NCBI GenBank assembly: GCA_949287225.1
Contig: CASEFP010000120.1
Coordinates: forward strand, 265-64,264
Length of the DNA stretch: 64,000 bases
Reading direction: 5' to 3'
Source: an uncultured Lentisphaeria bacterium
GTDB lineage: Bacteria > Verrucomicrobiota > Lentisphaeria > Victivallales > UBA1829
This document shows, one piece after another, positions 16,385-64,000 of this stretch; position 1 is the stretch's first letter; each line of letters begins with the position of its first letter. The notes beneath the pieces were generated by a model. The model made no database searches. It had not been told where the DNA came from and saw only the letters and a list, made by a program, of their open reading frames with translations. The position numbers and the translations under genes are program-made.

Positions 16385-16684
16385 TGGATATTTCCTTTCG
16401 TTGCTGGAAAAATAAAGCAGTGAATTGCATAGAATAGGTCAGAGAAAGCGGATATTCAAGCTCGCGGAACGAGAAATCATCAAAAAAACACTCCGGATAT
16501 CAGGCTGTTCCATCTGAGAAACGGTATCCCTTGCCTCATTATCCCTGTTGTGCCGCAGTTTGCGGATTTGTATTTTCCGTATTGTTATGATAGAAAAAGA
16601 TGGTGGCACGCGGTCATGCGGGAGAGAACGCTGTTTTCATCCGGACGCGTTTTCTTCCCGCATCCGGATGGAAATATTTCCTGT

Positions 16685-17029: not shown

Positions 17030-17181
17030 CTTTCATTCCTCCTCATTTTAGGTTGATCTCTCTTTGAACACCTGTTTTGCGTTGCTGCCCGTAAAACGAA
17101 GAAGAAATCTGTTTTATTGCATTAAATTGTTTTATTTTTAAATTATTTTATTTTTAAAGCTTAATCTTTGCGTTCGAGTAC

Positions 17182-17222
17182 AAAAACATCCCCCTCCCAC
17201 AATTTTCTTCGAGAGGGGGATG
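17182..17222 (-). terminator. Rho-independent terminator of ppdK
   Basis: Perfect 10-bp stem CATCCCCCTC / GAGGGGGATG (17187-17196 / 17213-17222). On the minus strand it is followed by a U run (plus-strand AAAAA, 17182-17186). It lies 29 nt past the ppdK stop. Confidence 0.7.
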
Positions 17223-17250
17223 TCCAGGAAATGCCGTTTTCCGCGATTCG

Positions 17251-43948: not shown

Positions 43949-43961
43949 GTTGGCGCCTCCG

Positions 43962-45485: not shown

Positions 45486-45487
45486 GT

Positions 45488-48308: not shown

Positions 48309-48312
48309 TGTG

Positions 48313-49218
48313 TCACCTTTCCTGGGAGGGGGAGTCTTGTTTCAGCGCCAGCCACCCTTCGCGTCCGGGAATCTCCCCTTTCACGATGGATGCGCGCGGC
48401 AGCGACGCCGGATCATCGGGCAGCAGATCGCCCGGCGCGGCGAACGAGATTCCGCGCGCCTTCGCCATATCGAGGAATTCCTCAAACATCTGCAGACATG
48501 CTCCGCCTTCGGCTTCGGCATGGATCGTCAGCATGTTCTGCGCGTCTTCCCGGACGGTCGCCAGGAGACGCTCGTTGTAGTTTTCATTGGTCACGCCGTT
48601 TTTGCCGAGCATTTCATCATAAGTCGGCATGTTGAGCGGAAATTGCGGTGTTGCCAGAACCTTTCCGTCCACGAGAGGCAGAAAAACACCCGTGCCGCGG
48701 CAGTCGCTGTTGTAGCGGAAATGGAAGCGTTCCTTCACAAGAAGGGTGCTCTCCACGCATTTCCATCCGGGAACGGCGGAGCAGACCGGAGGTTTTCCGG
48801 TAATCCGCTCCAGTTCATCATACGCTTTTTTGATGTGCGCATAGATAGCATCTGAATTCATTTTATCCACATGCGCCTGCCATGCGTGGTGATCCCATGC
48901 GTGAACACCGATTTCATGCCCGGATGCCGCACAGGCGCGGATCGTGTCCGCGAGACGCGCGCCGATCCGTGGGCCCGGCCACATCGTTCCCATCAGGAGA
49001 ATGTCAAGCCCGTAGAGACTCGCCGCCTTCGTCCGCATCATCTTCCACAGGAAAGCCGGCTTGAGGAGCCGCCAGATATGGCGTCCCATGTTGTCCGGTC
49101 CGACGGAGAAGAAGAACGCCGCACGGATGCCGTGTCTGTCCAGCACGCGGCAGAGGTTCGGCACGCCGTCGCGCGTGCCGCGGAAGGTGTCCACATCGAC
49201 TCGAAGCGCGATTTTCAT
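48313..49218 (-). CDS. arnD: 4-deoxy-4-formamido-L-arabinose-phosphoundecaprenol deformylase ArnD (polysaccharide deacetylase fold)
   Basis: 301 aa: [22 protein letters not shown]...[19 protein letters not shown]...[11 protein letters not shown]. This is ArnD-like throughout. Its start overlaps the arnA stop by 4 nt. Confidence 0.85.
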
Positions 49219-51206
49219 TTGACGGTGAACTCGCCGGATTCCACCGCCTGGCGGAGGAAGAAGTCCAGCGTCATCTTGATGGAGTCTTTGAGCTTGACCT
49301 GCGGCTCCCAGTCACAGTATCTCTTCGCGTTGCGGATGCTCGGCTTTCTGTGCTGGACGTCCTGATACCCCTTGCCGTAGAAACTGCTGCTCTCGACCTC
49401 CTTGTAACCGGCGAACGGCGGGAATTTCTTCCGGAGCGGATGTTTCTCGAACTGCTTCACCAGTTCCTCGGCAAGCTCCTTGATGCTCGCCTCGTTGGAG
49501 GGACAGCCGATGTTGATGATCTTCCCGTCGCATTTCCCGTCCTTGTTTTCGATGATCCGGAACAGGCACTCGATGCCGTCGGTGACGTGGGTGAAGCAGC
49601 GCTTCTGCGCGCCTCCGTCGATCAGCTGGATCGGCGTGCCCTGGACAAGATTGAGGATCAGCTGCGTGATCGCGCGCGAACTGCCGATTCTCGCGGAGGA
49701 GAGGCTGTCCAGCTTCGGCCCCATCCAGTTGAACGGACGGAACAGCGTGAACTTGAGCTGGCCCTTTGCGCCGTAGGCCCAGATGACGCGGTCGAGCATC
49801 TGCTTGGAGCAGGAGTAGATCCAGCGCTGCATCCGGATCGGACCGGTGATGAGCGGGGAGTTGTCCTCGTCGAAACTTTCGTCCGTGCACATGCCGTAGA
49901 CTTCCGAGGTGGACGGGAAGATGATGCGTTTGCCGTATTTGACGCAGCAGCGGACAATCCGGAGATTCTCTTCAAAATCGAGTTCAAACACACGGAGCGG
50001 ATTCCGCGTATATTCAATCGGGGTCGCAATCGCGACCAGCGGAAGCACAATGTCGCACTTGCGGACATGGTATTCGATCCATTCGCGGTTGATCGTGATG
50101 TCGCCCTCGAAGAAGTGGAAGCCGGGGCGCCCGATCAGGTCGGAGATGTAGTTGGAGCGCAAGTCCATCCCGTAGACTTCGTAATCGCCGCTCTCCAGGA
50201 GCCGTTCACTGATGGCGCTCCCGATGAACCCGTTGACGCCGAGGATCAGGACGCTTTTCTTCTCCTTCTTCGCATTGCCCCGGAGCGAGCTGGTGAATAC
50301 CATCTTTTCCACCAGCTTGCACTCCTCCGCAAGCTGTGCGCCGGAGGAGTAAAGCCCGCCTTCCTGCTGGGCGTAACGGACAACCACCGCTCCCTTGCCG
50401 CAGGCGATTGTGAGCGGACTGGTCGAGAGCACCGTGCCGGGGAATGCCTTCGGCGCATTTTTCGCTTCGGCAACCTCCCAGAAGAGGTATTTCTTTTCTC
50501 CGAGATAACTGAAGGCTCCGGGATAGGGACGCGTGACGCCGCGCACGAGATTGCGGACCTCCGCGGCGCTTCTGCTCCAGTCGATGATGCCGTCCGCCGG
50601 TTTGCGCCCTCCGAAACAGGTGGCTTTCTTCTCATCCTGCTTCACGCCTTTGAGCGTGCCTTTTTTGAGTTTCGGGAGCGCGCCGCGCAGGAGTTTTGCC
50701 GCCGCCTTCGCAGCTTTTTCATGAACGTCGCGTGCGGTGTCGTTCGTGCCGATCGGGAATTTTTCCTGGGCGAGAATGTCGCCGGCATCGGGTTTTGCCG
50801 TCATATAATGAAGCGTCACGCCGGTCTCCTTCTCGCCGTTGATGACCGCCCAGTTGATCGGGCAGCGCCCGCGGTATTTCGGAAGAAGCGAGCCGTGCAG
50901 GTTGATGCATCCTTTCGAGGGAATTGCGAGAATTTCCTTTCCGACCATATTCCGGTAGTAGAAGGAGAAGATGAAGTCCGGTTTCATCTTTTCGATTTTC
51001 GCGACCCAGAGCGGATGGTTGATGTTGTCCGGCGCATAAAGAGGAAGATTCTTCTGCGAAGCGAGCTCCGCAACCGATTCAAACCAGAGATTTTCATTCG
51101 GATCGTCCCTGTGTGTGAACACCGCCTGAATTTCAAATCCGTTTTCGAGAAGCGCGCGGATTCCCTCGCATCCGATATTGTTGTAAGCCAGAACGACTGC
51201 TTTCAT
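49215..51206 (-). CDS. arnA: Bifunctional UDP-GlcA decarboxylase / UDP-L-Ara4N formyltransferase ArnA
   Basis: 663 aa. The formyltransferase half has [17 protein letters not shown]. The SDR decarboxylase half has [10 protein letters not shown] and [33 protein letters not shown]...[11 protein letters not shown]. These are long near-identical runs to E. coli ArnA as remembered. Confidence 0.92.
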
Positions 51207-51238
51207 TCGTGATCTCCTGCTAGTCTGTGAGCGTTGCG

Positions 51239-52198
51239 TTATTTTTCCTCAGTTGCACCTGTGACCTTTTCCACAAAGTACTGCGGACGGCCGCGGGCGT
51301 TCAGATGAATCTTTCCGATGTATTCCCCGAGCAGTCCCATCGCGGCGAACTGCCCGCCCATGAACACGAACGCGATGGAAAAGAGCGTGAACACGCCGTT
51401 TGCGCCCCAGTCCTTATCATAGATCCGCGTCATGATGAAGATGACGATACCGAAGACGATGCCGAGAAAGGCGATGAAGAATCCGAAGAAGGTCAGCATC
51501 CGGAGCGGGAATGTGGAGGTTCCGGTCAGCAGGTCGTACTGCAGCGCGATCAGCTTCCAGATGGAGTATTTCGATTCTCCCGCTGCGCGTTCGGCGTGCC
51601 TGACGTTGACCTCTACCGAGCGGCGCGCGAACGACATTGCCAGCATCGGGATGAATTTGCCCTGTTCACGGCAGTTCAGAATCGCATTGACGACCGGGCG
51701 GCTGTATCCGCGGAGCATGCATCCGTAGTCGGTCATGACCTTTCCCTTGGTCAGTTTCCGCACGATCAGGTTGACGGTTTTCGAGGCGAGTTTGCGGAAG
51801 ATCGTATCTTTGCGATTCTCTCGGATGGAGCCGACGACATCGTAACCCTCTTCCAGTTTTTCGACCAGCTTGTGAATCTCCTCCGGCGGATTCTGGAGAT
51901 CGGCGTCCAGCGTGACGATGTATTTGCCGCGCGACTGGGCGAGTCCGGCGGTTACGGCCGCGTGCTGTCCGAAATTGGTTGTCAGAATGACGCCGATTAC
52001 TTTTCCGGGATGATTCCGGGAGGCTTCCTCGATCATGGAAACCGATTGATCCATGCTCCCGTCGTCAACCAGAATGATCTCATAAGAGCGTTTCATCTCT
52101 TCGCATGCGGCGAGCGTCCGCCGGATCATTTCCGGAAGATTCGGTTCCTCGTTGTAAACCGGAATCACAATGGATAGTTCAAGTGTGTCCGCTGCCAT
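51239..52198 (-). CDS. arnC: Undecaprenyl-phosphate 4-deoxy-4-formamido-L-arabinose transferase ArnC (GT2)
   Basis: ORF 51239..52234. The start is taken at [18 protein letters not shown] (ATG 52198). It has a GT2 DxD region ([13 protein letters not shown]) and two C-terminal TM helices. Confidence 0.88.
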
Positions 52199-52276
52199 GA
52201 TTGTTCCGTGGCTCCTCAGTAAAATTATCTGCAATTGTGCAATATACCGCCTGCGGCGGCATATTCCAAACCCGGA

Positions 52277-54073
52277 TCACTGAAAAATCGTGATTTTCCT
52301 TCTCTTCTCTTCTGGAACATTCAATGCGACGATCACGTATTTTTCCCTGCGGTTGTTTCTGTGTTCCCATTTCCGCACGGGTTCAGCCATGAAGACATTC
52401 TCCTGAATGATTTTGCGCAGTTCCGGTCTCTGGATACGCTGCCAGTCGCGGTACTCGGCGATCACGGCGACCGGCTTGTTTCCCGCATCCCTGAAGTAGC
52501 TGCAAAGATTTTTTTCCAGATCTTTTCCGGGGAAATCCCGGGCGAGGATTTCAATATGCTCTCCAAATGCGAGATAGTAGGACAGCTTGGTATAATTTTT
52601 TGACAGATAAGCCACATTGCCCTGGGAGATGCCGGCTTCCTTCATCTCGTGCGATGCTTCCAGAATGAACGTTTTCCCTGTCCGGAATTCAGCATCGACT
52701 ACGGGGAGGACGAGTCCGAAGATAAAGATCAGCAGCACCGCGCTCGAGACCGCCGTTCCGGGAAAACCGTGACAGGGGCAGAAACTCCATTTTGCATTGT
52801 CCTGCTTTCTCTTCCGGAAATAGAGGAAGAGGAAAATGAGCAGCAGTCCCAGCGGGAGCGGCGCACCGTAAATGAGCAGGCTGACGGCATACGGCAGATC
52901 GAAGGGCACAAAACGCTTCGCAAAGATCCAGAGCGCCGGAAGGAGCAGAACAAGGCAGCCGCCGATGAGAAAAACATATTGATAGATGTTCAGCAGAATT
53001 TCTTTTGCGCGTTCGAGCCATCCCGTTTCCATCCGGCAGAGATAAAGCGCCGTCAAAATCGCGCAGTAGGGCAGAATCGGAAGAATGTAATAGACGCGCT
53101 TTGATCCGGAGAGAGAGAACATGACGAAGATTGCGGCAATGGAGATTGTCAGCCAGCGCTCATCCGCTGAAAGCTCCTTCCATTTTCTGCAGGCCCATGC
53201 AAGAGCGAGGATGAGGAACGGCGTCCAGGGCAGGAACAGCTGCGGCAGATATTTGAAATAGTCATACCAGTCGCCCTTGTGGTCGAAGGGGGCGAAAAAG
53301 CGCGTGATGTTCTCACGGAACACGAGATAGATCCCATCGAAAGAGGTGTCCCCGTTTTTGAGCGCCACAAGCAGGAACGGCAGGAAATAGAGCAGGATGG
53401 ATACTATCCCTGCTCCGAAGAAACGCATGTTGAGGTGTTTTTTCCAGGTATTGTTCAACATAAGATCCACCAGCACGACGAGGACCGGAACCGCGATTGC
53501 GCTGAGTCCTTTTGTCTGGCCGCCCACTGCGCAGAGAGCCCCGAAGATCAGATAGGGTAGGAACGATGTCTTTTCCCGGTTGCGGATATACCAGGCGACT
53601 GCAAGAGTGCTGAAGGCGGTATTCAGCATGTCAGCTTCGGCGAGACGGCCCCAGAAGGCGAGGCTGTAAATGGTCAGCATGATCCAGCCTGCTGTCTGCG
53701 CGATGGCGCGTCCCCAGAGGTGTTCGGCAATGGCGCGTGCCGCCCAGAGGGTTGCCAGTGCGGCCAGTGCGCTTGGAATGCGGGCGATCAGTTCATTGAC
53801 GATTCCGTTGTTGAAGAGTGCGCAGAAGGCGATGAACCAGTAGCTCAGGATCGGCTTGTCGAAATAGATTTCGAAATTGATGGTCGGCTGGAAGAAATTG
53901 CCGCTCAGGAACATCTCACGGACGATGGCCGCCCAGCGTGCTTCGGAGCCGGAGATCCCCTTGACTCCGAGATTCAGGAAGAGCAGTCCGCAGGCCAGTG
54001 CCCAGAAGACGAGATCCGGGAGGTTCTGCATGGAGAAAAATTTTGATTTTGCGGAGATCGTATTCTGTTCCAT
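52277..54073 (-). CDS. GT39/GT83-like (ArnT/PMT-type) membrane glycosyltransferase paralog with a C-terminal soluble domain
   Basis: ORF 52277..54133. Start candidates are 54073 (MEQNT, preceded by GGAG), 54109 and 54133. The first loop reads GSEARWAAIVREMFLSGNFFQPTINFEIYFDKPILSYW and is alignable to the ArnT PDETRYAEI...YFEKP motif, but with SE in place of DE. Confidence 0.75.
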   Translation of the reverse strand: MEQNTISAKSKFFSMQNLPDLVFWALACGLLFLNLGVKGISGSEARWAAIVREMFLSGNFFQPTINFEIYFDKPILSYWFIAFCALFNNGIVNELIARIPSALAALATLWAARAIAEHLWGRAIAQTAGWIMLTIYSLAFWGRLAEADMLNTAFSTLAVAWYIRNREKTSFLPYLIFGALCAVGGQTKGLSAIAVPVLVVLVDLMLNNTWKKHLNMRFFGAGIVSILLYFLPFLLVALKNGDTSFDGIYLVFRENITRFFAPFDHKGDWYDYFKYLPQLFLPWTPFLILALAWACRKWKELSADERWLTISIAAIFVMFSLSGSKRVYYILPILPYCAILTALYLCRMETGWLERAKEILLNIYQYVFLIGGCLVLLLPALWIFAKRFVPFDLPYAVSLLIYGAPLPLGLLLIFLFLYFRKRKQDNAKWSFCPCHGFPGTAVSSAVLLIFIFGLVLPVVDAEFRTGKTFILEASHEMKEAGISQGNVAYLSKNYTKLSYYLAFGEHIEILARDFPGKDLEKNLCSYFRDAGNKPVAVIAEYRDWQRIQRPELRKIIQENVFMAEPVRKWEHRNNRREKYVIVALNVPEEKRRKITIFQ

Positions 54074-54240
54074 GGCTCCGAGTTCCTTTTGACGGTGTTG
54101 CTGTGTCATGATTTGAAAAAGCAAGTATAGCACTGGCGGAAATTCTTTTCAATCCGATTGTTGTTAGAATATTGTTAGAACTTCCGAACCGGACGTTATT
54201 CGGCCTGAATTTTATTTCCAGTTCGTGCCTGCATCAATAC

Positions 54241-54779
54241 GGAAGAATGCGCGAGCATTCTTCCCGGGGTCAAGGGTCGTTGACCCTTGTCGTGATCCAG
54301 CGGCGAAAACGCTGGTCGTGCGGAGCACGAAATCTTCCGCCCGGAGCGGTTCAGACCGCTCAGTGACGAGAACTTTTTCGCTGAAAAAGTTCGAGAGCTC
54401 CGGGCGTATTCATTGAGACGAAAGAATGCGCATGCATTCTTTCGTCTCCTATATATTCAATAATCACGAGAGCTTCGGGACTATTCCCGAGGTGATACGC
54501 TGTACCGGCACCTTTCGAGGAAGCGCTTCTCGTTTCTGAGTGGGAGGAAGCGTTGCCGGAGGGAGATTTCGCCTTTGGTGACCAGCTAGCGCAGCTTCGC
54601 GCGCTTTTTTGTTTGTTCGCATTTTTTAGCGCAGCTTCGCGCGCTTTTTTGTTTGTTCGCATTTTTTAGCGCAGCTTCGCGCGCTTTTTTGTTTCGCCTT
54701 CGGCGCCCAGCTTACGCAGCTGGACTGCGCAAGGGTCAAAGACCCTTGACCCCGAGAAAAATGTATTTGCATTTTTCCG
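54241..54779. repeat. Long copy of the hairpin-array inverted-repeat element (imperfect inverted arms of about 90 bp, hairpin-rich core, internal 40-bp tandem repeat)
   Basis: Left arm stem-loops:
- 54241-54264: ggaagaatgc-gcga-gcattcttcc
- 54271-54289: caagggtc-gtt-gacccttg
- 54297-54315: ccagcg-gcgaaaa-cgctgg
- 54316-54330: tcgtgc-gga-gcacga
Core stems lie at 54344-54361, 54370-54392 and 54415-54448 (a 15-bp perfect stem).
The right arm carries the modules in inverted order:
- 54708-54724: ccagct-tacgc-agctgg
- 54731-54749: caagggtc-aaa-gacccttg
- 54757-54778: gaaaaatg-tatttg-catttttc. Confidence 0.75.
54589..54695. repeat. Tandem repeat, 40-bp unit x about 2.7
   Basis: The unit agcgcagcttcgcgcgcttttttgtttgttcgcatttttt occupies 54589-54628 and 54629-54668 (identical copies). 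A third copy from 54669 diverges after about 27 nt. Confidence 0.85.
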
Positions 54780-54869: not shown

Positions 54870-54955
54870 GCCGAAGTGGCGGAATGGCAGACGCACTAGA
54901 CTCAAAATCTGGCGCTCTTACGGGCGTAAGGGTTCAAGTCCCTTCTTCGGCACCA
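54870..54955 (+). tRNA. tRNA-Leu (anticodon CAA), CCA encoded
   Basis: The acceptor stem is GCCGAAG/CTTCGGC. The anticodon stem is CTAGA/TCTGG with loop CTCAAAA (anticodon CAA). It has a long variable arm (GCGCTCTTACGGGCGT), a T arm GGG-TTCAAGT-CCC, discriminator A and a terminal CCA. Confidence 0.93.
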
Positions 54956-55890
54956 TTTCCATTTTCTCCGGATCGTTTTTCCTCCTGCGCCAGAACCGTT
55001 CCCGGCTCTTTTTTCGAAAGGGAAAGCACATATTGTTTCGGCGTGAGTCCTGTATAGCGGCGGAATACCCGGCAGAAATGGCTTGTGTCATGAAATCCAA
55101 GCACCGAGGCGGCGTCTTTTACAAAATTCAGATTCCCAGCCAGCAGTTGTTTCGCATATTCGATACGCTTGTAAACGATGAATTTGCCGAGCGGCATTCC
55201 GAATTCCGCCTGAAGCAGGCGGGAAAGATGTCTCTCGGACAACCCCATGTGCGCGGCATGAATACGCGCACTGGGCGGCGCATTGGTCAGGACGCTGATG
55301 GTGTTCAGAATTTTTCCGATGGTATCCGTATGGCCGGAATAGACTCGCTCGCTTTCCGGCTGTGATAATTTCGGAAAGTGAAACCGGAAGAAATGCAGAA
55401 ACAGTTCCTTCAAACGGCATTCGCCGAATTCCGCCCAGTAGGGATTCCGCGCCAGCACAAGTTTCCGAAGCTCCTCCTCATGACGGAAAAAGCCGGGAGG
55501 AATGGAAAAGCAGTAGCCTTGCGCGGCAATTCTGTCCCGGAAATTCCACAAAGAAAGATGATCGCCCGGAAGAACTGGATCAATTTCCAGATGCGCAATC
55601 GTCGTCTCACTGAATGCTTTTGCTGAGCGGACATGGGAAATGACCGAGGGAATCAGGCAGATCTGCGGTTCCGAAACAGTAAGCGTAATGTGTTTTCCCG
55701 CAATCCGGTAGGAACAGCGGTTCCGCCGCATGAATGCAAATTCATAGTGCGGGTGTTCGTGTTCCTTTGTGTTAAACGCTTCCAGACGGGAATCATGGTA
55801 GCTGCTGATCCGGAAACGGAGCATCCCGATCCGGAACGTGGAGGAATTTGCAAGAATCTGACGCAGTCCGTAATTGAATGAATCTTCCAT
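54934..55890 (-). CDS. AraC-family transcriptional regulator
   Basis: ORF 54934..56340. The N-terminal 150 codons of the track ORF would overlap the divergent gene, so the start is taken at MEDSFNYG (ATG 55890). The C-terminal double HTH reads IHAAHMGLSERHLSRLLQAEFGMPLGKFIVYKRIEYAKQLL...SHFCRVFRRYTGLTPKQY. The 3' tail overlaps the tRNA-Leu 3' end antisense by 22 nt. Confidence 0.8.
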   Translation of the reverse strand: MEDSFNYGLRQILANSSTFRIGMLRFRISSYHDSRLEAFNTKEHEHPHYEFAFMRRNRCSYRIAGKHITLTVSEPQICLIPSVISHVRSAKAFSETTIAHLEIDPVLPGDHLSLWNFRDRIAAQGYCFSIPPGFFRHEEELRKLVLARNPYWAEFGECRLKELFLHFFRFHFPKLSQPESERVYSGHTDTIGKILNTISVLTNAPPSARIHAAHMGLSERHLSRLLQAEFGMPLGKFIVYKRIEYAKQLLAGNLNFVKDAASVLGFHDTSHFCRVFRRYTGLTPKQYVLSLSKKEPGTVLAQEEKRSGENGNGAEEGT

Positions 55891-56040
55891 AATGTCTGAA
55901 ACATCCTGTTTTTTGTCTATTATATCCTGTTTTTGTCTCTTGTCAAGCGTCCTGTTTTGAAATATAATAGTTTCAGGAAAGACAAAGAAAGCGCGATCGG
56001 ATGAGAAAAGACAAAAACAAACCGGAGAAAGGAGTTTTGG

Positions 56041-56802
56041 ATGTATAAGATTTTCACATTGATAGAGCTTCTGGTCGTTATCGCAATCATTGCGATTCTT
56101 GCCGCACTTCTGCTGCCGGCATTGAATCAGGCGCGGGAACAGGCTCGCAAGATCTCCTGTCTGAGCAATTTGAAGCAGGTCGGCGCACAGATGCAGTTTT
56201 ACGAAGGAGACAACGGGTTGTATCCGCCGGGAAAAATCATCGTCAGCGGAGCCAACGACAACAACTGCTTCGCCTGGAATCTGTATCTTTTCGGTACGCT
56301 GGATCAGAGCCTGCCCAACATGTGGTCCAGAACACCGCACAGCCGCTACAAGGTCTTGAAATGCCCCTCGGACAACATGCTTCCGAGTGCGCTGGACTGC
56401 CCGAAAAATTCCTATGCCTTCAATATGTGCAGTCTGGGATTCGGCCGTCAGGATGCAAGCGGCAATATCACATGGGATCCGGATCCGAACAATCCTTCAC
56501 TCAGCGGATATGGCGCATTGCTCGGAGACATCCGCAACAACCGAGCCAAAAAATCTCCGTCTCAAATCACCACAATTTTCGATATGGGATCCCATGCGCG
56601 TTCAGACAATGCCTCCACATTTTATATGCAGTGGCTTTATGAGCCGTCGAATCTCAGCACTCTTGTTCTCGGCGGACTTTACGATACGGACGCCTCGCAC
56701 AAGAAGGGTTCCAACTGGCTCTTCTGGGACGGACACGCGGAATGGCTGACCCCCAGAAGAATCCCCGCATTTTCACAGAAGTATATGTATAATGGCAAAT
56801 AA
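56041..56802 (+). CDS. Prepilin-type N-terminal domain protein of the H-X9-DG (DUF1559-like) family
   Basis: 253 aa: [46 protein letters not shown], with the C-terminus [13 protein letters not shown]. The leader is only 4 residues and the -1 residue is Ile, not Gly. Confidence 0.85.
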
Positions 56803-56845
56803 GCAGGATCCAACTGCGGAAGAAAGATAAGGAAAGGTTATTGCT

Positions 56846-59266
56846 ATGAGATATTTGAATCTGGCGATCTGTCTGTGTTTTTTCAGTTTTGCCGGGCGGG
56901 CGTTTGAATTCGCAAAGGACGGGGTTCCTTCCTGTGTGATTGCGCTGCCGGCGAATTCCGGGAAACTGGAGAAAATGGCGGCAGACGATCTGAAGGAATT
57001 TCTGGGGCGGATGACTGGAGGAGATTTCCGGATTGTAGAGGAAGCAAAGTGTGTTCCCGGAGCACCTGCCGTTTATCTGGGCTGGAGCGATTTCGCGGAA
57101 AAGAACGGTATTGATTTCAGGACTCTCGACCGGGAGGAATGGCTGGTCCGGAAAATCGGGAAAAATCTGGTGGTCACGGGCGGACGCCCCGTCGGGACTT
57201 TCTACGGTGTCTGGAGAGTCTTGAACAAACTTGGTTGCTATGTTCTGACGATGGATCAGAATGTGGTTCCGGAAAAGAAAACTCTTTCATCGGAAAATCT
57301 TGACGAACGCGGCAGGCCCGCTTTTGCCGGACGTCTGATCTTCAATGATTTTCCCGGCAAGGCGATGATCGCAAAGATGCCGAAACAGGCGGAAAATGCT
57401 TACAATCTATTTTCCCTGCGCAACGGCACAAACGGTCCGCAGACCCACCGGACGACTCCGTATTACATCGGCGGCATGTACAACATCTCCCATACCCCGC
57501 AGGCGCATACACTCTCTCTTTACGTGAATCCGGACAAGTATTTCAAGACCCATCCGGAATATTTTTCCATGAATCCCGAGGGGAAGCGCTTCCGCCCGAG
57601 CGGTGCGTTCGGCGAAAAGTTCGGGAGCCTCTGCATGTCGAACCGCGATGTCTGGAAAATCACGCTGGAATCTTTGCGCGGCATGATTCAGAAGGACCGG
57701 CAGACGCGTCCGCGGGAAAACTGGCCGTTCCTGTATGACATTTCGATTCTGGACGCCTCGCCCTATGTCTGCAAATGTCCGGAATGCACGGCCATTTCCC
57801 GGGAGGAAGAGTCCGAAGCCGGACTGCTCCTGCGCTACATCAATTATGTGGCGACGGAGATCGCCGGGGAATATCCGGACATCATCATCCGGACGTTCGC
57901 CTATTCCGCGGTCCGGAAACAGCCGAAAATCACGCGTCCTGCGAAAAATGTCCTGCTCCAGCTCTGCGATGAATTTCCGCTGGCGGACGCATACCGTCCG
58001 CTCACGTCGCGCTTCAATGTGAACCGCCTTGAGGACCTGCGCAAATGGCAGGCTATGGGGGCGTCGCTGATGGTGTGGGATTACTGGAATATTGGAAACC
58101 AGTATTTCGATCCGCCCCGTGTGGAGGTTCTGATCGACGCGATTCAGCCGGACATCCGGCTTTTCCGTGAACTGGGAGCAAAGGCGCTTTTTCTGGAGGC
58201 GGAACGGGATTTCGTGTCGCCGCAGAACTTCTATGATCTGGAGTATTTCCTTGCAATGCGTCTGATGATGAATCCGGATGAAGATGCGGCGGAACTGACC
58301 GATATTTTCCTGAAGGGATTCTACGGACCTCTGGCGCCTGTGATGAAAAGCTGGCTGAATGAATTGCGTGCGGGTGTCAAGGCGCATCCGAATAAGCAGA
58401 CAATTCTGACCGCCGGAAACTGGCATTACATGACGCCGGATTTTGCGGTGAACTCCTATCGGAAACTGAAGGCTGCCGCCGCCTCCCTGCCGGAAGGGAA
58501 CGTGTTCCGGCGCAGGGTTGAGGACGAGATGATCACGCTGATCTGGGCCTCTCTTGTGAAGCGCATCTCATTCGAGCCGGCCTTCAGAAAGGCAGGTATT
58601 GATATGTCCGAAATGATCGGAGAATGCCGGAAATATGTCCGCAATCATATCCGCCGCTACGGTGCACAGGCGCCCGGTTATCTGGATGAAATGTTCGAGA
58701 AAAAATTCAAACCTGTCACGATCAATCTTCCGAGACCGGAAAAATTCAGGGATGTTCCCGATGAGAAAATCCGTGTTCTCGGTTATCCCAATGCGACGGC
58801 CTATCGGGAACTGAAATCGGAAATTGTCAACGATCCGGATTCCATTACGGGGAAAACACTGATTTCCCGTGGAAAAGACGCCTCCTGGCATGGCGTCGGG
58901 AAGATGATTCAGGCGACACCGGCTGTCCGTGTTCCCGCTATGAAATTCGCCTTGGCGAATATCGGCGCCAAGGGGGAAGTTTCCACCGTTCTTCAGAAAG
59001 TGCCGCAGGATGAGAAATACCACTGGTATAAGCTCAAGGGGACGATTGACCTGCATGAAAAATCCTATTTCTGGGGGCACAGCTGGGCGATCCAGTTCAA
59101 GACGGACTCCGTTTACGTGCTGTCCGACGGGATTGCGGACAACAATGTATGGGAGTGCTGGATGTCGGCGAAATTCACCGGCCCGGCTTATGTCGCCGGC
59201 TCGAAGAAAGAGAATGCTGTTTCCGTGGACATGATAGTGCTGACCCGTCCCGGTGTTGTGAAATGA
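56846..59266 (+). CDS. DUF4838-type secreted glycan-active protein (paralog of 7417..9687)
   Basis: 806 aa with a signal peptide (MRYLNLAICLCFFSFAGRA). The N-terminal pattern LVVTGGRPVGTFYGVWRVLNKLGCYVL and the Cys-containing block CKCPEC match the paralog's SGGGTRGTLYGVYNFLEKQCG and CSCPGC. Confidence 0.75.
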   Translation: MRYLNLAICLCFFSFAGRAFEFAKDGVPSCVIALPANSGKLEKMAADDLKEFLGRMTGGDFRIVEEAKCVPGAPAVYLGWSDFAEKNGIDFRTLDREEWLVRKIGKNLVVTGGRPVGTFYGVWRVLNKLGCYVLTMDQNVVPEKKTLSSENLDERGRPAFAGRLIFNDFPGKAMIAKMPKQAENAYNLFSLRNGTNGPQTHRTTPYYIGGMYNISHTPQAHTLSLYVNPDKYFKTHPEYFSMNPEGKRFRPSGAFGEKFGSLCMSNRDVWKITLESLRGMIQKDRQTRPRENWPFLYDISILDASPYVCKCPECTAISREEESEAGLLLRYINYVATEIAGEYPDIIIRTFAYSAVRKQPKITRPAKNVLLQLCDEFPLADAYRPLTSRFNVNRLEDLRKWQAMGASLMVWDYWNIGNQYFDPPRVEVLIDAIQPDIRLFRELGAKALFLEAERDFVSPQNFYDLEYFLAMRLMMNPDEDAAELTDIFLKGFYGPLAPVMKSWLNELRAGVKAHPNKQTILTAGNWHYMTPDFAVNSYRKLKAAAASLPEGNVFRRRVEDEMITLIWASLVKRISFEPAFRKAGIDMSEMIGECRKYVRNHIRRYGAQAPGYLDEMFEKKFKPVTINLPRPEKFRDVPDEKIRVLGYPNATAYRELKSEIVNDPDSITGKTLISRGKDASWHGVGKMIQATPAVRVPAMKFALANIGAKGEVSTVLQKVPQDEKYHWYKLKGTIDLHEKSYFWGHSWAIQFKTDSVYVLSDGIADNNVWECWMSAKFTGPAYVAGSKKENAVSVDMIVLTRPGVVK

Positions 59267-59288
59267 CCGCTCTGAAGGAGTATTTGAA

Positions 59289-60473
59289 ATGCAGAACTTG
59301 ATCGCCGATGAGAAAATTGTATTCGAATCTCCGGATCCGGAGAGCGTTTTCTGTTATACCCCGGCGCTTCTGCCTGCCGAAGAAGGCAGGCTTGTCGCCT
59401 CGTTTGATCTGGGCGGACCGGGAACGGAAAAGCTCGATGGTCCGCGTTCCGACCACGGAGATTATCCGACGGGCAATCAGCTTCGCTTCCTGATATCCGA
59501 CGATCATGGAGAAAACTGGCGTGAAGGAGCCAGACTCCCCATGCTTCACGCCATGCTCTTCAAGGGAAAAGATGCCCTGTGGTGCATCGGGCACAGCGGA
59601 CGGCTGCTCATCAGCCGCAGTACGGACAACGGAGAGAGCTGGTCGGAACCCTCGATTCTGGACGACAGCCATCTCTGGCATCAGAGCGCGGGGCATATCG
59701 ACATTCATGACGGAAAAATTTATCTTGTTTATGAACAGCGCATCGAAGGACGCTCCTGGCCCGGTGTCGCTCCCGTTCTGATGTCCGCGAAAGTCGATGC
59801 GGATCTCCGCGACAGAAAGAACTGGACGTTTTCCGAACCGTTTGACGGCGCTCCGCTGTTTGCGGAAGACACGCTGAACGGAATTCCTCTTGCTCCCGGG
59901 TGCGAGCCGGGCATCCTGGAAACAAACGTCGTGCGCATCGTCAATCCGGGGAATTTCTTCTATGACGGAACCGGAAACAGCGTGCTGCTCTTCCTGCGCC
60001 AGAACGGCGGGCTTCCGAATATGGGGGCTGTTCTGCGGGGGATCGAAGCGCCGGACGGTTCTCTTCGGATTGTCCCGCTGGAAAATCCCGCTTCGCGCCG
60101 GACGTTTCTGGTTCCGATGCCCGGCGGACAGCTGAAATTCTATCTGGATTACGATCCCGTTTCCCGCCTGTACTGGCTGCTTTCCTCTCAGACGACCGGG
60201 TATATGAGCGAAGAACGGTATCTCCCCCGCGGTTATTCGGGGCGCTGCCGTCTTCAGCTCCACTATTCTGTCAATGCGTTTGACTGGTGTTACGCAGGCA
60301 TGGTTGCAATGGCTCCCGGGGAACCGGCCTCGCGTCATTACGCATCCTTCGTCTTTGACGGAGAGGACATGCTCGTCCTGAGCCGTTCCGGTGACAGGCG
60401 CGCCAAGTCCGCGCACGACGGAAATCTGATTACGTTCCACAGGGTCCGCGCGTTTCGCTCTCTGGTATTCTGA
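59289..60473 (+). CDS. BNR/Asp-box beta-propeller protein, sialidase-like glycoside hydrolase; no signal peptide
   Basis: 394 aa with Asp-boxes SDDHGENW and STDNGESW. The N-terminus MQNLIADEKIVFESPDPE has no hydrophobic leader. It starts 22 nt after the DUF4838 gene. Confidence 0.72.
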   Translation: MQNLIADEKIVFESPDPESVFCYTPALLPAEEGRLVASFDLGGPGTEKLDGPRSDHGDYPTGNQLRFLISDDHGENWREGARLPMLHAMLFKGKDALWCIGHSGRLLISRSTDNGESWSEPSILDDSHLWHQSAGHIDIHDGKIYLVYEQRIEGRSWPGVAPVLMSAKVDADLRDRKNWTFSEPFDGAPLFAEDTLNGIPLAPGCEPGILETNVVRIVNPGNFFYDGTGNSVLLFLRQNGGLPNMGAVLRGIEAPDGSLRIVPLENPASRRTFLVPMPGGQLKFYLDYDPVSRLYWLLSSQTTGYMSEERYLPRGYSGRCRLQLHYSVNAFDWCYAGMVAMAPGEPASRHYASFVFDGEDMLVLSRSGDRRAKSAHDGNLITFHRVRAFRSLVF

Positions 60474-60479
60474 GGAGAT

Positions 60480-61382
60480 ATGACAATGAAGAGATTCCAT
60501 GGGATCATTCCCCCCGCGGTCACTCCCCTTCTGACTGACGGCTCCCTTGATGTCGGTGGACTGGAGCGTCTTCTGGAGCACATGATTTCCGGCGGCGTTC
60601 ACGGCGTTTTCATTCTTGGCAGCACCGGAGAGGGGCCGGCTCTCGGTTCCCGGGTGCGCGAAGGAATGATGAGAGAGACAAAGCGGATAGTCCGCGGCAG
60701 GATTCCGATCCTGACGGGGGTTTCCGCCGCTGCGCTTCAGGAGTCTGTTGGCGCATCCCGCCTTGCGAGGAAATACGGCGCGGACGCTCTTGTCGCGGCT
60801 CCGCCATGCTATTATCCGCTCGGCGAGGCGGAATTGATTGATTATTACACGGCTCTGGAAAAAGCCGTTGCCTTTCCTCTTTTTATCTACAATATGCCGA
60901 GTATGACGAAAATAGCGATCAAGCCCCGGACGGTGCTGCGCCTTGCGGAAATTCCCGGCGTGACCGGCTACAAGGACAGCTCCGGGAACATGTGCGAATT
61001 TCATGAGGTGCTTCTCGCGCTGAAGGATCGGGCGGACTTTTCCATTTTCATCGGTCCGGAGGAGCTGCTCGGCGAGGCCGTTCTCTTCGGCGCGGACGGC
61101 GGAATCGCAGGCGGAGCCAATCTGAATCCGGCGCTTTTCGTCAACATGTATCAGGCTGCGGAACGCGCCGATCTTCCGGAGGTCCGCCGCCTTCAGAAGG
61201 AGATTTACCGCCAGCGCAGACTCTATGCGGTCGGACGTTATCAGTCCAGCATCATCAAGGGAATCAAAAGCGCTCTTTCCCTGCGGGGAATCTGCGGGGA
61301 TACGATGGGGGATCCTTTTCAAGCATTCCGGGATCCCGAGCGTAATCGGGTGGAAGATGTTCTCAAGGATTTGTCTTCCTGA
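60480..61382 (+). CDS. DapA-family class I aldolase (N-acetylneuraminate lyase / 2-keto-3-deoxy-sugar-acid aldolase-like)
   Basis: 300 aa with GSTGEG, an IYNMP motif and the Schiff-base lysine context GVTGYKDSSGN. It starts 6 nt after the sialidase-like gene. Confidence 0.85.
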   Translation: MTMKRFHGIIPPAVTPLLTDGSLDVGGLERLLEHMISGGVHGVFILGSTGEGPALGSRVREGMMRETKRIVRGRIPILTGVSAAALQESVGASRLARKYGADALVAAPPCYYPLGEAELIDYYTALEKAVAFPLFIYNMPSMTKIAIKPRTVLRLAEIPGVTGYKDSSGNMCEFHEVLLALKDRADFSIFIGPEELLGEAVLFGADGGIAGGANLNPALFVNMYQAAERADLPEVRRLQKEIYRQRRLYAVGRYQSSIIKGIKSALSLRGICGDTMGDPFQAFRDPERNRVEDVLKDLSS

Positions 61383-61433
61383 TTTTTTGCGCGATGATAT
61401 TGCTGGAAAATCAAAGCATGGAAAGGATTCATC

Positions 61434-63029
61434 ATGCCGAATGAACTGCTGATCGGACTGGATTTCGGAACGGACAGTGTCCGGGCGCTGCTGGCCGCCT
61501 CGGACGGAACCCCGGTCGCCGAGAGCGTCTGTCCCTATCCGCGCTGGAGCGAAGGAAAATACTGTGATCCCGCGTCCAATCAGTTCCGCCAGCATCCGCT
61601 GGATTACATCGAGGGGATGGAAACGGTTGTCCGGGCGGTCCTGAAGGAGTGCGATCCGCACCGGGTCCGGGGGATTGGCGTCGACACGACTGGTTCGACT
61701 CCCTGTGCCGTCGATGTTCTCGGCAGACCCCTGGCGCTGGATCCGCGTTTCTCTGAAAATCCCGATGCGATGTTTCTTCTCTGGAAGGACCATACGGCGC
61801 TGGAGGAGGCGGCGCGCATCAACGAGACGGCAAAAAACGGAAAGGGTCCGGATTATACGGCTTACGAGGGGGGCACCTATTCCTGCGAGTGGTTCTGGAG
61901 CAAGATCTTGTATGTGCTGAAAAGAGATCGTGCAATTCGGGAAAACGCGCATCATTTCCTTGAACACTGTGACTGGATTCCGGCGCTTCTGACCGGGGTC
62001 GGGAATCGTGCCGGACGCTGCGCCGCCGGACACAAGGCGATGTGGCATGAATCCTGGGGCGGTCTGCCGCCGGAGGAGTTTTTCGTCTCAGTCGATCCCC
62101 TGCTCCGAGGAATGCGTGGGCGTCTTTACAGCGAAACTTACACGGCGGACATTCCCGTCGGCACGCTTACGCCGGAATGGGCGGAACGCCTCGGTCTTTC
62201 CACGGAAGTCGTTGTCGCCGGCGGCGCGATCGACTGTCACGCGGGAGCGCTTGGCGCGGGAATCGAAGCCAATCAGATGGTGAAAGTCATGGGAACCTCC
62301 ACCTGTGACCTGATCGTCGCGCCGCATGTGAACAAATGCATCCGCGGCATCTGCGGGCAGGTTGACGGTTCCATCCTTCCCGGCCTGATCGGCATGGAAG
62401 CCGGGCAGGCTGCGTTCGGAGACATCTATTCCTGGTTCCGGCGTCTGCTCTCCTACGGCGGAAACGAGGTAAGTCTGGAACAGCTGGAACGCGATGCCGC
62501 GCTCCTTGAGGATTCCTCGCTGACGGCGCTGGACTGGATGAACGGAAGACGTACTCCCGATGCGGATCCGCTTCTGCAGGGGGCGATTCTCGGAATCGGT
62601 CTTGGCGCGACCGCGCCGATGATCTACCGGGCGCTGGTGGAGAGCACTGCGTTTGGTGCGCGCGCCATTCTGGAACGTTTTCTGGAAGAGGGTCTTGCCA
62701 TTCAGGAAATCAAGGCGATCGGAGGCATTGCCCGGAAATCACCTTTTGTGATGCAATTCTGTGCGGATGTTCTCGGGCGGACGATCTCCGTCGTCAAGTC
62801 TGAGCAGGCATGTGCTCTGGGAAGCGCGATGTATGCCGCTGCCGCTTCGGGAGTCTATCCGGATCTTGCCTCTGCGGTATCCGCGATGAATTCCGGTTTT
62901 GATGCCGTTTATCTGCCCCGGAAGAATTATGATGAGCGCTATCGGCGCTACCGTCTCTGGGGCGCCGCCGCGGAACAGCTCTGTCACTCTTCTTTTTCTG
63001 TTTTTCCGGGCTCCGGCGGAATCGGATAA
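61434..63029 (+). CDS. araB: Ribulokinase (FGGY family, AraB-like)
   Basis: 531 aa. The N-terminus LIGLDFGTDSVRALLAASDG...YPRWSEGKYCDPASNQFRQHPLDYIEGME...GIGVDTTGSTPCAVD...NPDAMFLLWKDHTALEEA closely parallels E. coli AraB as remembered. Confidence 0.86.
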   Translation: MPNELLIGLDFGTDSVRALLAASDGTPVAESVCPYPRWSEGKYCDPASNQFRQHPLDYIEGMETVVRAVLKECDPHRVRGIGVDTTGSTPCAVDVLGRPLALDPRFSENPDAMFLLWKDHTALEEAARINETAKNGKGPDYTAYEGGTYSCEWFWSKILYVLKRDRAIRENAHHFLEHCDWIPALLTGVGNRAGRCAAGHKAMWHESWGGLPPEEFFVSVDPLLRGMRGRLYSETYTADIPVGTLTPEWAERLGLSTEVVVAGGAIDCHAGALGAGIEANQMVKVMGTSTCDLIVAPHVNKCIRGICGQVDGSILPGLIGMEAGQAAFGDIYSWFRRLLSYGGNEVSLEQLERDAALLEDSSLTALDWMNGRRTPDADPLLQGAILGIGLGATAPMIYRALVESTAFGARAILERFLEEGLAIQEIKAIGGIARKSPFVMQFCADVLGRTISVVKSEQACALGSAMYAAAASGVYPDLASAVSAMNSGFDAVYLPRKNYDERYRRYRLWGAAAEQLCHSSFSVFPGSGGIG

Positions 63030-63104: not shown

Positions 63105-64000
63105 TCATTCTGGCGCATCTTCTGTCAGCTCTTTCAGTTTTACGATTTGCGCTGCGACCTGACTGCGGAAATTCTCCAGTTCGGAAAGAGAGCGCGTCCA
63201 GACATTGGTCGCCTGAACAATGTGGTCGGGCACCTTCAGCAGAGCTTCGACATTCCGGCGGAGCTCCGGATTCATGACGCCTTTCCGCAAGGCGCGATTC
63301 CTGTATTGTTTCAGGATGGAAAGATATTCATAATCCTCCACGCCGTCACGGATATATTGCGCGCGCAACGAGGCGATGACACCATCTTTTTGCGGATAGA
63401 TGAAACAGGCGTCCCCGGGGGCATTTTGAAACGGGAAGCCCCACTCTTCATGAATCCAGCGGTTTGCCAGCTTTTTCCGGTTTTCCGGTGTGGACGGGTG
63501 TCCGGCAATCCATTGTTCGGAAGCCCAGTAGAGAAATCCTCCGGCCTGATATTTCCAGCAGATCAGAGCGGCAATCCGCGGCTCGATTCCCGGACGGTCG
63601 ATCATGAACATCGGAAAATCCGGTTTGTAGAGGCACTGATAGAAATAGAGCGATTCGTTCTCCGGCATGTTCCTGTAATCCGATGGATTGAACTGCGGAA
63701 ACTGCGGGCACCACGCGGTAATATAACCGTTCAGGTTGGAACGATTCCGGACTGCGCCTGCGGAAATGATCGGCGGCAGTTCTTTCTCCAGCTGGCGGAA
63801 TCTGGTTACCGTGCGGCGGATGTATTCCTGCTTTTCCTTGCTCCACGGTTCATCACTCACCTGCAGAACGGCATATTTATAATAGCCTTTTTCCTTGAAA
63901 TATGCGATTGTCTGCCGGAACAGCTGATTTGCCGCGGAAAGCGGATCCTCCGGAAGAAAATCCGTCAGTCTGCCGTTTTCGTCAATGAGGATTTTCCGCG
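63105..64000 (-). CDS. Glycoside-hydrolase-like protein, C-terminal part (DUF4091-like; gene continues beyond the window end)
   Basis: The track ORF 63105..63860 starts with GTG, but the frame stays open to position 64000 (...RKILIDENGRLTDFLPEDPLSAANQLFRQTIAYFKEKGYYKYAVLQVSDEPW...). The C-terminal motifs (GGFLYWASEQW, IRDGVEDYEYLSIL) suggest the DUF4091 family. This assignment is tentative. Confidence 0.55.
   Translation of the reverse strand, partial: RKILIDENGRLTDFLPEDPLSAANQLFRQTIAYFKEKGYYKYAVLQVSDEPWSKEKQEYIRRTVTRFRQLEKELPPIISAGAVRNRSNLNGYITAWCPQFPQFNPSDYRNMPENESLYFYQCLYKPDFPMFMIDRPGIEPRIAALICWKYQAGGFLYWASEQWIAGHPSTPENRKKLANRWIHEEWGFPFQNAPGDACFIYPQKDGVIASLRAQYIRDGVEDYEYLSILKQYRNRALRKGVMNPELRRNVEALLKVPDHIVQATNVWTRSLSELENFRSQVAAQIVKLKELTEDAPE

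Follow-up and report, generated by a model that had tools for sequence, protein, structure and literature searches.

We analysed a 64,000-nucleotide stretch of contig CASEFP010000120.1 from an uncultured Lentisphaeria bacterium (here called the window), which carries a five-gene operon of predicted glycan catabolism next to the gene of an AraC-family regulator. The operon consists of five plus-strand genes in the list of open reading frames (ORFs), at 56041-56802, 56846-59266, 59289-60473, 60480-61382, and 61434-63029. They encode a pilin-like protein, a secreted DUF4838 protein, a beta-propeller, a class I pyruvate-dependent aldolase, and an AraB-type ribulokinase, respectively, and are separated by gaps of 43, 22, 6, and 51 nt. 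An earlier note, made from the letters of this DNA alone, had described five tightly spaced same-strand genes divergent from an AraC regulator, and the coordinates, gaps, and families obtained here all agree with it. The host is a gut or rumen Victivallales bacterium, and the closest named relatives of its propeller and aldolase are Victivallaceae and Victivallales proteins. Loci retrieved from genomes and metagenomes with the propeller, the aldolase, or the kinase are designated by L-numbers; L001 is a contig identical to the window.

The regulator gene (54934..55890, minus strand) encodes a 318-aa protein of the AraC family (HTH_18, 70.8 bits; HTH_AraC, 52.4 bits). The longer ORF, which extends to 56340 and overlaps the pilin gene, does not mark the true start; the 318-aa length is that of the gene call on an identical metagenomic contig. 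The 150-bp intergenic region between araC and the operon contains back-to-back sigma-70-like sites, one on the minus strand at 55946..55919 (12/12) and one on the plus strand at 55940..55968 (11/12). A repeat with a period of about 21 bp occupies 55893-55938, with three direct copies that contain TCCTGTTTT. We regard these copies as a candidate AraC operator beside the -35 site of the operon, and the region 55893..55968 as a putative divergent promoter; such a layout is usual for the site of an AraC-type activator. No terminator-like site or hairpin was found between the five operon genes. The tight gaps, the one strong upstream promoter pair, and the absence of internal terminators support the prediction of a single operon.

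The proteins encoded in the operon

The third gene (59289..60473, plus strand) encodes a six-bladed BNR/Asp-box beta-propeller of 394 aa. Its matches to the Pfam families BNR and BNR_2 were weak and sub-threshold (BNR_2, 22.0 bits against a cutoff of 31.4). The AlphaFold (AF2) model, built from 47 homologues with a predicted local distance difference test (pLDDT) score of 92.6, was all-beta with about 24 strands, a fold of the sialidase type. In the Foldseek search against PDB, the first match was an uncharacterised Dyadobacter protein (5HX0), followed by GH33 sialidases (NanA, PG_0352, NEU2, and trans-sialidases) and GH93 arabinanases, all with template-modeling (TM) scores of 0.5-0.6 and 12-15% identity. 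Sequence and profile searches matched PDB sialidases through Asp-boxes only (E around 1e-4 to 1e-6), of which the protein has two, SDDHGENW and STDNGESW. When the family profile was aligned by hhalign with human NEU2, only one Asp-box was aligned, at 16% probability, which yielded no mapping of residues. Because the sequence matches run through Asp-boxes only, the propeller has a sialidase fold yet is not a demonstrable GH33 member. At the position of the N-terminal (F/Y)RIP motif of sialidases, whose arginine is the first of the triad, the window propeller has CYTP, and Y/F-T/S-P is found across the 47 homologues. The propeller had been called sialidase-like in the earlier note, which holds for its fold but not for the sialidase and BNR_2 models, where it is sub-threshold, or for the RIP arginine, which is replaced. 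The database names "exo-alpha-sialidase" and "sialidase family protein" were unsupported by the tests run here.

A second propeller subfamily, about 25% identical to that of the window, occurs in Paludibacter, Bacteroides, and Verrucomicrobia. Across both subfamilies, the polar residues D40, H131, E149, E211, R237, K283, D289, R319, Y351, R366, and H376 are invariant. D40, E149, E211, R237, R319, Y351, and R366 resemble in order and spacing D46, E218, R237, R304, and Y334 of NEU2. The D...E...R...R...Y series seems to recall the sialidase acid/base, the nucleophile pair of Glu and Tyr, and two arginines of the three, and R366 in the last blade could replace the missing N-terminal arginine. We predict that the protein is an exo-glycosidase that frees a 2-keto-3-deoxy sugar acid. 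The protein has no room for a signal peptide because only 22 nt lie between its ATG and the preceding stop, which confirms what the earlier note had said. The propeller family comprises 1204 clusters at 50% identity, and some members carry lipoprotein signal peptides. Fusion partners of its homologues include SASA esterase, FGE-sulfatase-like, Laminin_G_3, Big_2, and dockerin domains, which are consistent with extracellular glycan work without indicating a substrate. Assignment of the propeller to GH143 (BT1020-type) was unsupported, as it had no match to PF24067, the model of the BT_1020 propeller.

The fourth gene (60480..61382, plus strand) encodes the aldolase, which matches PF00701, the dihydrodipicolinate synthase (DHDPS) family, with 187 bits. 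Its similarity to PDB 4XKY (318 bits) far exceeds that to any other solved chain of the family, including DapA, NanA, YagE, and 2-keto-3-deoxygluconate (KDG) aldolase (at most 133 bits). 4XKY was deposited as the dihydrodipicolinate synthase ("DapA") of B. thetaiotaomicron. The window aldolase scored below every NCBIfam cutoff: dapA, the best by score (TIGR00674, 155.9 versus 206.15), the NanA models (NF003164, 133 versus 281; TIGR00683, 108.6 versus 382), KDG aldolase (106 versus 390), and KdgD (72 versus 374). The subfamily keeps GSTGE, the catalytic Y137 (YNMP), and the Schiff-base K165 (YKDSSG) invariant, as in DHDPS-fold Schiff-base enzymes, and the aldolase carries a GPEE acid pair. In DapA, an arginine (R138 in E. 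coli) binds the carboxylate of aspartate semialdehyde. Where DapA has YNVPxRT, the window aldolase has YNMPSMTK; the arginine position is occupied by Met, Leu, or His in all 10 aligned subfamily members, and by His in 4XKY (YNMPTHTK).

The missing substrate-binding arginine and the sub-threshold score ruled out the assignment as DapA. On sequence grounds, we assign the enzyme to a distinct, uncharacterised 4XKY-type subfamily that is neither DapA, NanA, nor KDG aldolase. As the earlier note's proposal would require, it does not cluster with bona fide DapA or KDG aldolases, according to its scores, motif, and grouping with 4XKY. The same note had placed it in the N-acetylneuraminate lyase (NAL) family; the fold family and the Schiff-base lysine are in accord with this, but the enzyme falls far below the NanA cutoffs and has a subfamily of its own. 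The database name "dihydrodipicolinate synthase family protein" was unsupported by the tests run here.

It would follow from a DapA of lysine biosynthesis that there is no pathway and that the gene order is fortuitous. This explanation can draw on the deposited name of 4XKY, on dapA as the best NCBIfam match by score, and on two homologues of 61-62% identity that stand alone among housekeeping genes. We find it hardly credible, given the replaced arginine in the aligned members and 4XKY, the score short of the dapA cutoff, and the catabolic operons in which the subfamily occurs, which are under LacI or AraC control and include SusC/D, transporters, and glycosidases. In one Victivallales metagenome-assembled genome (MAG), an aldolase homologue that stands alone has genes of a Mu-like prophage directly upstream (portal, protease, major capsid gpT, Gp36; L095, 5656-9143).

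The second gene (56846..59266, plus strand) encodes a protein of 806 aa that matches PF16126 (DUF4838) with 180.7 bits over residues 135-504, corresponding to profile positions 3-324 of 325. It has a signal-peptide-like N-terminus, MRYLNLAICLCFFSFAGRA, and an extra C-terminal region of about 300 aa. No solved relative was found by PDB sequence search. DUF4838 is the catalytic domain of GH163, which releases sialyl-N-acetyllactosamine (sialyl-LacNAc), and of GH185, which acts on 6-sulfo-GlcNAc, and it is distantly related to GH20 (PMC10570127).

The first gene (56041..56802, plus strand) encodes the pilin-like protein, which matches the prepilin N-terminal methylation model (TIGR02532, 21.7 bits versus a cutoff of 16.3) and DUF1559 (PF07596, 32.7 bits versus 23.3) and shows a C-terminal H-X9-DG motif in its translation. 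It thus bears all three marks of the H-X9-DG/DUF1559 prepilin-type group of the Planctomycetes-Verrucomicrobia-Chlamydiae (PVC) bacteria. In Victivallales, genes of this kind repeatedly open glycosidase operons under AraC or LacI control or lie close to their first gene (L013, L025, L060, L098, L102/L107, and the window), and in L060 one is fused to a GH130 domain (15505-17271). This distribution points to a general function in capturing glycans or taking them up.

Recurrent gene neighbourhoods

The 4XKY-type aldolase directly adjoins the propeller in 10 of the 80 species-level loci retrieved with the propeller, including seven of the ten closest Victivallis loci (usually in the order LacI, aldolase, propeller) and two Verrucomicrobia loci. 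One V. vadensis MAG keeps the order of the window: pilin-like gene, large secreted protein, propeller, aldolase. In the Verrucomicrobia loci, a regulator of the GntR/FCD type occurs as well, together with sulfatases, a protein that matches BNR_2 strongly, and an additional propeller of the Paludibacter type. The Paludibacter operon consists of LacI, aldolase, FucI, YhcH/DUF386, BNR propeller, and SusC/D, and its propeller is 23% identical to that of the window (E = 3e-20). In the Bacteroides operon, LacI, aldolase, SSF transporter, YhcH, and FucI come first, and either SusC/D or sulfatases with a BNR_2 protein lie behind them; 4XKY orthologues lie in this LacI-aldolase-SSF-YhcH-FucI catabolic operon in L096, L097, and L100. 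The aldolases of Bacteroides and Paludibacter are 46-47% identical to the window aldolase, and the FucI proteins of these operons score far above the equivalog cutoffs. Because it recurs from both anchors, the association of aldolase and propeller extends over three phyla and no fewer than three divergent types of propeller, including that of a GH92 locus. The propeller and the aldolase, which the earlier note had taken as a unit, form a conserved module in Lentisphaerota, Verrucomicrobiota, and Bacteroidota. We think it probable that a 2-keto-3-deoxy sugar acid is released by the one and cleaved by the other.

The pairing has exceptions. The propeller of rumen Bacteroidales is a lipoprotein, encoded among genes for esterases and GH36-like, nucleoside-hydrolase-like, and 3-keto-disaccharide hydrolase proteins; in L029-L050 a secreted inosine-uridine nucleoside-hydrolase-like protein directly follows it, with 3-keto-disaccharide hydrolase genes nearby. 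A ThuA protein with a weak match to the nucleoside-hydrolase-like family precedes the propeller in L008-L010. In L025 a PfkB protein resembling KDG kinase comes after a secreted homologue of the propeller, among GH78-like, GH127-like, and DUF4838 genes. [quoted passage not shown] Downstream of the operon in the window, a convergent GH123_cat-like (DUF4091) gene is cut by the window end (63105..64000, minus strand; PF13320, 55.9 bits); it is 311 aa long on the identical contig L001. GH123-like genes flank the propeller in three lineages, that is, in the window (63105-64000), in L008-L010 (L008, 11219-13477), and in L060 (6114-10001 and 12164-15499).

By tblastn, neither FucI, YhcH, nor SSF was detected in the 64 kb of the window. 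The earlier note had stated that the pentose isomerase is not encoded in the window, and the negative search with FucI upholds this; FucI is present in the orthologous operons of Bacteroides and Paludibacter. N-acetylmannosamine (ManNAc) epimerase and kinase (NanE/NanK or AGE), NagA, and NagB were found neither in the operon nor in the related loci examined. That the locus lacks an epimerase and a deacetylase, as had been noted before, was borne out. A ROK-family gene lies about 10 kb upstream, outside the operon (45488-46468, minus strand), in a row with genes for polyphosphate kinase and a Ppx/GppA phosphatase (41795-46468, minus strand; ppx/ppk). It is more likely to encode a glucokinase than a ManNAc kinase.

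The fifth gene (61434..63029, plus strand) encodes a protein of 531 aa that passes the cutoff of the ribulokinase model NF003154 (663 versus 428 bits) and falls below that of TIGR01234 (555 versus 583 bits). This is the AraB-type ribulokinase of the FGGY family that the earlier note had recognised, and araA and araD are absent from the window and the contig. No kinase was found in the propeller-anchored loci; metagenomes were therefore scanned with the kinase itself. Among the 80 loci with kinase homologues (50-64% identity), araD lies alongside in 44 and araA in 39. L101, which holds the sister sequence to the window kinase, is an araBDA operon. L136 consists of AraC, a 4XKY-type aldolase, and ribulokinase; L160 of AraC, a class II aldolase, a 4XKY-type aldolase, and ribulokinase; and L177 of FucI, ribulokinase, and FucP. 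A neighbour-joining tree (no bootstrap; many short contigs) placed the kinases of the window, L136, and L160 in one clade, where araA is adjacent in one member (L125) and araD in none. Because adjacency of aldolase and kinase is seen in two independent metagenomic loci, L136 and L160, whose kinases share this clade with that of the window, we consider it recurrent, not accidental. A convergent HpcH/HpaI pyruvate aldolase gene lies beside kinases of the same clade in L102, L103, and L107, and other neighbours are a TRAP DctP/DctM transporter in L119 and a DUF4838 gene in L176. These neighbours hint that sugar acids, and not L-arabinose, are the substrates of the clade.

An ordinary L-ribulokinase would nevertheless suit the use of pectin or arabinan side chains, with araA and araD elsewhere in the genome. 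The propeller would then be a GH93-like or other exo-glycosidase for a sugar other than an ulosonate, for example L-arabinose, and the aldolase would act on an unrelated acid (KDG, 2-keto-3-deoxy-L-arabinonate [L-KDA], or one derived from Dha). The ribulokinase equivalog cutoff is passed, the nearest relative of the kinase is in an araBDA operon, and GH93 arabinanases are among the fold matches of the propeller. Neighbours of its homologues agree as well: esterases and GH36-like and GH43/GH32 genes in rumen Bacteroidales, GH78-like, PcRGLX/GH127-like, and KdgK-like genes in L025, and, in L012, Eda and KdgK at a distance of about 5 kb from the LacI-aldolase-propeller unit. What this leaves unexplained is the company of this aldolase subfamily: BNR propellers accompany it in three phyla and FucI in Bacteroidota, and in three lineages it lies directly upstream of the kinase. 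Moreover, L-ribulose 5-phosphate needs AraD, which is absent at the locus, whereas D-ribulose 5-phosphate (Ru5P) needs nothing further. We consider pectin or arabinan use an improbable function of the operon.

A candidate route for Kdo

We tentatively favour the reading that this is an AraC-controlled glycan-foraging operon, which harvests a terminal 3-deoxy-2-ulosonic acid, most likely Kdo, for central metabolism. The secreted DUF4838 glycosidase and the pilin-like H-X9-DG protein would process or capture a glycan outside the cell, and a fragment would be imported by some transporter. In the cytoplasm, the propeller without a signal peptide may free the ulosonic acid, as its fold and its conserved pairing with the aldolase suggest. 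The 4XKY-type aldolase would then split the acid by means of its Schiff-base lysine into pyruvate and an aldose, which would be D-arabinose in the case of Kdo. An isomerase encoded elsewhere (FucI in Bacteroidota) would convert D-arabinose to D-ribulose, which the AraB-type kinase would phosphorylate to Ru5P for the pentose-phosphate pathway. Alternatively, phosphorylation might precede cleavage, which would yield arabinose 5-phosphate for isomerisation to Ru5P by the housekeeping enzyme KdsD. Archaeal KD(P)G aldolases of the DHDPS type accept phosphorylated substrates. For the loci that lack the isomerase (the window, L136, and L160), it is conceivable either that the isomerase is encoded elsewhere in the genome or that phosphorylation comes first.

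Three pairwise links, each seen in different genomes, bear on the identity of the sugar: aldolase with FucI, aldolase with AraB-like kinase, and FucI with AraB-like kinase. FucI also serves as D-arabinose isomerase, and AraB of E. coli phosphorylates D-ribulose as well as L-ribulose. Kdo is the only common natural 3-deoxy-ulosonic acid whose retro-aldol product, D-arabinose, is a substrate of FucI. The triangle of aldolase, isomerase, and kinase fits with the conversion of Kdo to pyruvate and D-arabinose, and of the latter via D-ribulose to Ru5P. The stand-alone kinase also fits with the D-ribulose route because Ru5P needs no AraD. The earlier note had guessed at a pathway for an ulosonic acid such as Kdo, 2-keto-3-deoxy-D-glycero-D-galacto-nononic acid (KDN), or a sugar of the Dha type; the distinct aldolase, the conserved pair, and the links to FucI and the kinase strengthen the pathway itself, but not the identity of the sugar or the enzymology.

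In the literature, BT1013 of B. thetaiotaomicron is an RG-II enzyme in which a domain that hydrolyses Kdo is joined to GH78 (PMC13501991). For Kdo aldolase (EC 4.1.2.23), activity was reported in E. coli BW25113, where no gene is annotated for it (PMC10619137), and Kdo pathways in gut microbes were described as unconfirmed (bioRxiv 10.64898/2026.03.13.711244). No described Kdo catabolic locus was found in the literature searched, with most subscription journals outside its scope. The ribose-utilisation (rus) polysaccharide utilisation loci list DHDPS, LacI, and BNR genes, with no published detail bearing on this locus.

Several observations weigh against the Kdo route. Neither an isomerase nor a transporter is present in the window or its identical contigs. 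Among the kinase homologues, the closest (64% identity) belongs to a classical araB-araD-araA operon, and araD and araA accompany the kinase homologues as often as given above. The propeller has CYTP at the sialidase RIP position and its GH33 match runs through Asp-boxes only, while GH93 arabinanases match its fold about equally well in Foldseek. For the aldolase, 4XKY is described as DapA, the function of the subfamily is a prediction from sequence, and the two homologues among housekeeping genes have no partners. Another aldolase (64% identity; same sample series) belongs to an operon headed by AraC, with GH92, BNR_2, pilin-like, GH42-like, and GH2 beta-mannosidase genes, which looks like a locus for N-glycan degradation and would suit sialic acid. 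GH123 activity is known for substrates with beta-linked N-acetylhexosamine (HexNAc), and the partnership of GH123-like genes with the propeller is a second one that a Kdo route leaves unexplained. DUF4838 enzymes, too, are known for beta-HexNAc substrates (PMC10570127). Finally, D-Kdo is reported to be among the products secreted by B. thetaiotaomicron on RG-II (bioRxiv 10.64898/2026.03.13.711244), and yet a B. thetaiotaomicron-type contig carries the aldolase and SSF. In this contig the aldolase gene is followed by that of SSF, and the LacI gene of B. ovatus-type genomes is missing between the NUDIX and aldolase genes. Our preference for Kdo is held to a tentative one because of the Kdo secretion, the N-glycan-like locus, the HexNAc enzymes, the lone aldolases, the lack of a transporter and an isomerase, and the question of propeller catalysis.

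Some of these points would be accommodated by foraging on host sialoglycans. The DUF4838 and GH123-like proteins would trim HexNAc glycans, the propeller would be a divergent cytoplasmic sialidase or KDNase, the aldolase would be a lyase for N-acetylneuraminic acid (Neu5Ac) or KDN, and the ribulokinase would be an unrelated neighbour or have another role. The propeller fold is closest to GH33 sialidases, and some family members are fused to SASA domains of the sialate-O-acetylesterase type; the substrates of GH163 (sialyl-LacNAc) and GH185 (6-sulfo-GlcNAc) and the GH92, BNR_2, GH42-like, and GH2 genes around the 64%-identical aldolase agree with this, as do the Bacteroides operons, with an SSF transporter and a YhcH resembling N-acetylneuraminate anomerase, and the Verrucomicrobia loci, with a GntR/FCD regulator of the NanR type. 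On the other hand, ManNAc epimerase, ManNAc kinase, NagA, and NagB are missing from the loci examined, and links to FucI and an AraB-type kinase would be senseless for ManNAc or mannose. The aldolase is also far under both NanA cutoffs, and the RIP arginine is absent from the propeller. B. thetaiotaomicron, which carries the aldolase, is generally held unable to catabolise Neu5Ac. We judge sialoglycan foraging to be rather unlikely.

If the preference for Kdo is extended beyond this operon, the 4XKY-type subfamily would be the long-missing Kdo aldolase, and the companion BNR propellers would be new families of Kdo-releasing glycosidases. Together with FucI, an AraB-type kinase, or both, they would make up a catabolic route for Kdo, the first to be defined genetically, and it would be widespread among gut Bacteroides, Victivallales, Verrucomicrobia, and Planctomycetes. 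This extension is more doubtful than the reading of the operon itself.

Kdo occurs in nearly all lipopolysaccharides (LPS) of Gram-negative bacteria, many capsules, pectin RG-II, and green-algal walls. If the assignment is true, bacteria could use LPS cores, capsules that contain Kdo, RG-II, or the cell walls of algae as food, and an orphan EC number would gain genes, new glycoside hydrolase families would be defined, and the widespread LacI-aldolase-SSF-YhcH-FucI operon of Bacteroides would be explained. It would also correct the "DapA" (including 4XKY) and "exo-alpha-sialidase" annotations of two large protein families and offer a first way to approach the function of the pilin-like H-X9-DG genes at the head of PVC glycan operons. 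A locus with glycosidase, aldolase, isomerase or kinase, and regulator would make Kdo catabolism directly testable. Tractable carriers are the cultured Victivallis vadensis DSM 14823 (propeller homologue in L069), Victivallis MAGs and isolates with LacI-aldolase-propeller, and gut Bacteroides, and a crystal structure of the aldolase subfamily already exists (4XKY).

Directly upstream of the locus, at 46638-54133 (minus strand), lies an arn-like set for lipid A modification, with two PMT/PMT_2 proteins (ArnT-like), a polysaccharide deacetylase (ArnD-like), a formyltransferase-epimerase fusion (ArnA-like), and a GT2 protein (ArnC-like). It probably has nothing to do with the operon. A perfect 40-bp tandem repeat (54587-54694; 2.7 copies, 100% matches) lies between araC (3' end) and the ArnT-like gene (start), and each of its copies has a terminator-like hairpin, AGCGCAGCTTCGCGCGCT, followed by a T-run.

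Comparison with known systems

The closest parallels are the sialic acid clusters (nanA with sialidase; nanLET of Bacteroides), which likewise pair a sialidase-fold exo-glycosidase with a Schiff-base pyruvate aldolase of the DHDPS family. Relatives of the window locus resemble them further in carrying a YhcH-family protein and an SSF-type transporter and in their regulators, which are of the LacI or GntR/FCD type. In contrast to these clusters, neither the aldolase nor the propeller of the window is covered by the curated models for NanA and GH33, the RIP arginine and, in this organism, a signal peptide are missing from the propeller, ManNAc epimerase, ManNAc kinase, NagA, and NagB are absent from the window locus, and the downstream enzymes are of a pentose type (AraB-like kinase in the window, FucI in Bacteroidota).

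Kdo aldolase activity (EC 4.1.2.23) was reportedly purified by Ghalambor and Heath in 1966. The predicted cleavage of Kdo to pyruvate and D-arabinose would explain the links to FucI and ribulokinase; as the EC number has no assigned sequence, the window aldolase is likened to it by gene neighbourhood alone. The RG-II enzymes of B. thetaiotaomicron (BT1013, GH78 with Kdo hydrolase; BT1020, GH143/GH142) are comparable as beta-propeller or sialidase-like hydrolases for 3-deoxy-ulosonic acids, and the propeller homologue in L025 lies beside GH78-like and GH127-like genes. Unlike them, the window propeller does not match the BT_1020 Pfam model, and the window has no pectin-specific carbohydrate-active enzymes. 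With GH163 (BT1035) and GH185 (Sp_0475), the second operon protein shares the Pfam domain at a strong score, and it is secreted like BT1035; it differs in having no subfamily placement in this very diverse family (PMC10570127) and in its additional C-terminal region.

Catabolism of D-arabinose by FucI and D-ribulokinase, as in E. coli B, is resembled by FucI, AraB-type kinase, and FucP in L177, and both enzyme types flank the 4XKY-type aldolase in different genomes. The window differs in that its kinase stands alone and that D-arabinose would come from aldol cleavage, not from uptake. In its logic, the locus appears to be nan-like, with an exo-glycosidase, a class I pyruvate aldolase, and then phosphorylation of a product derived from the aldose, and it is best filed as a putative variant of ulosonic-acid catabolism.

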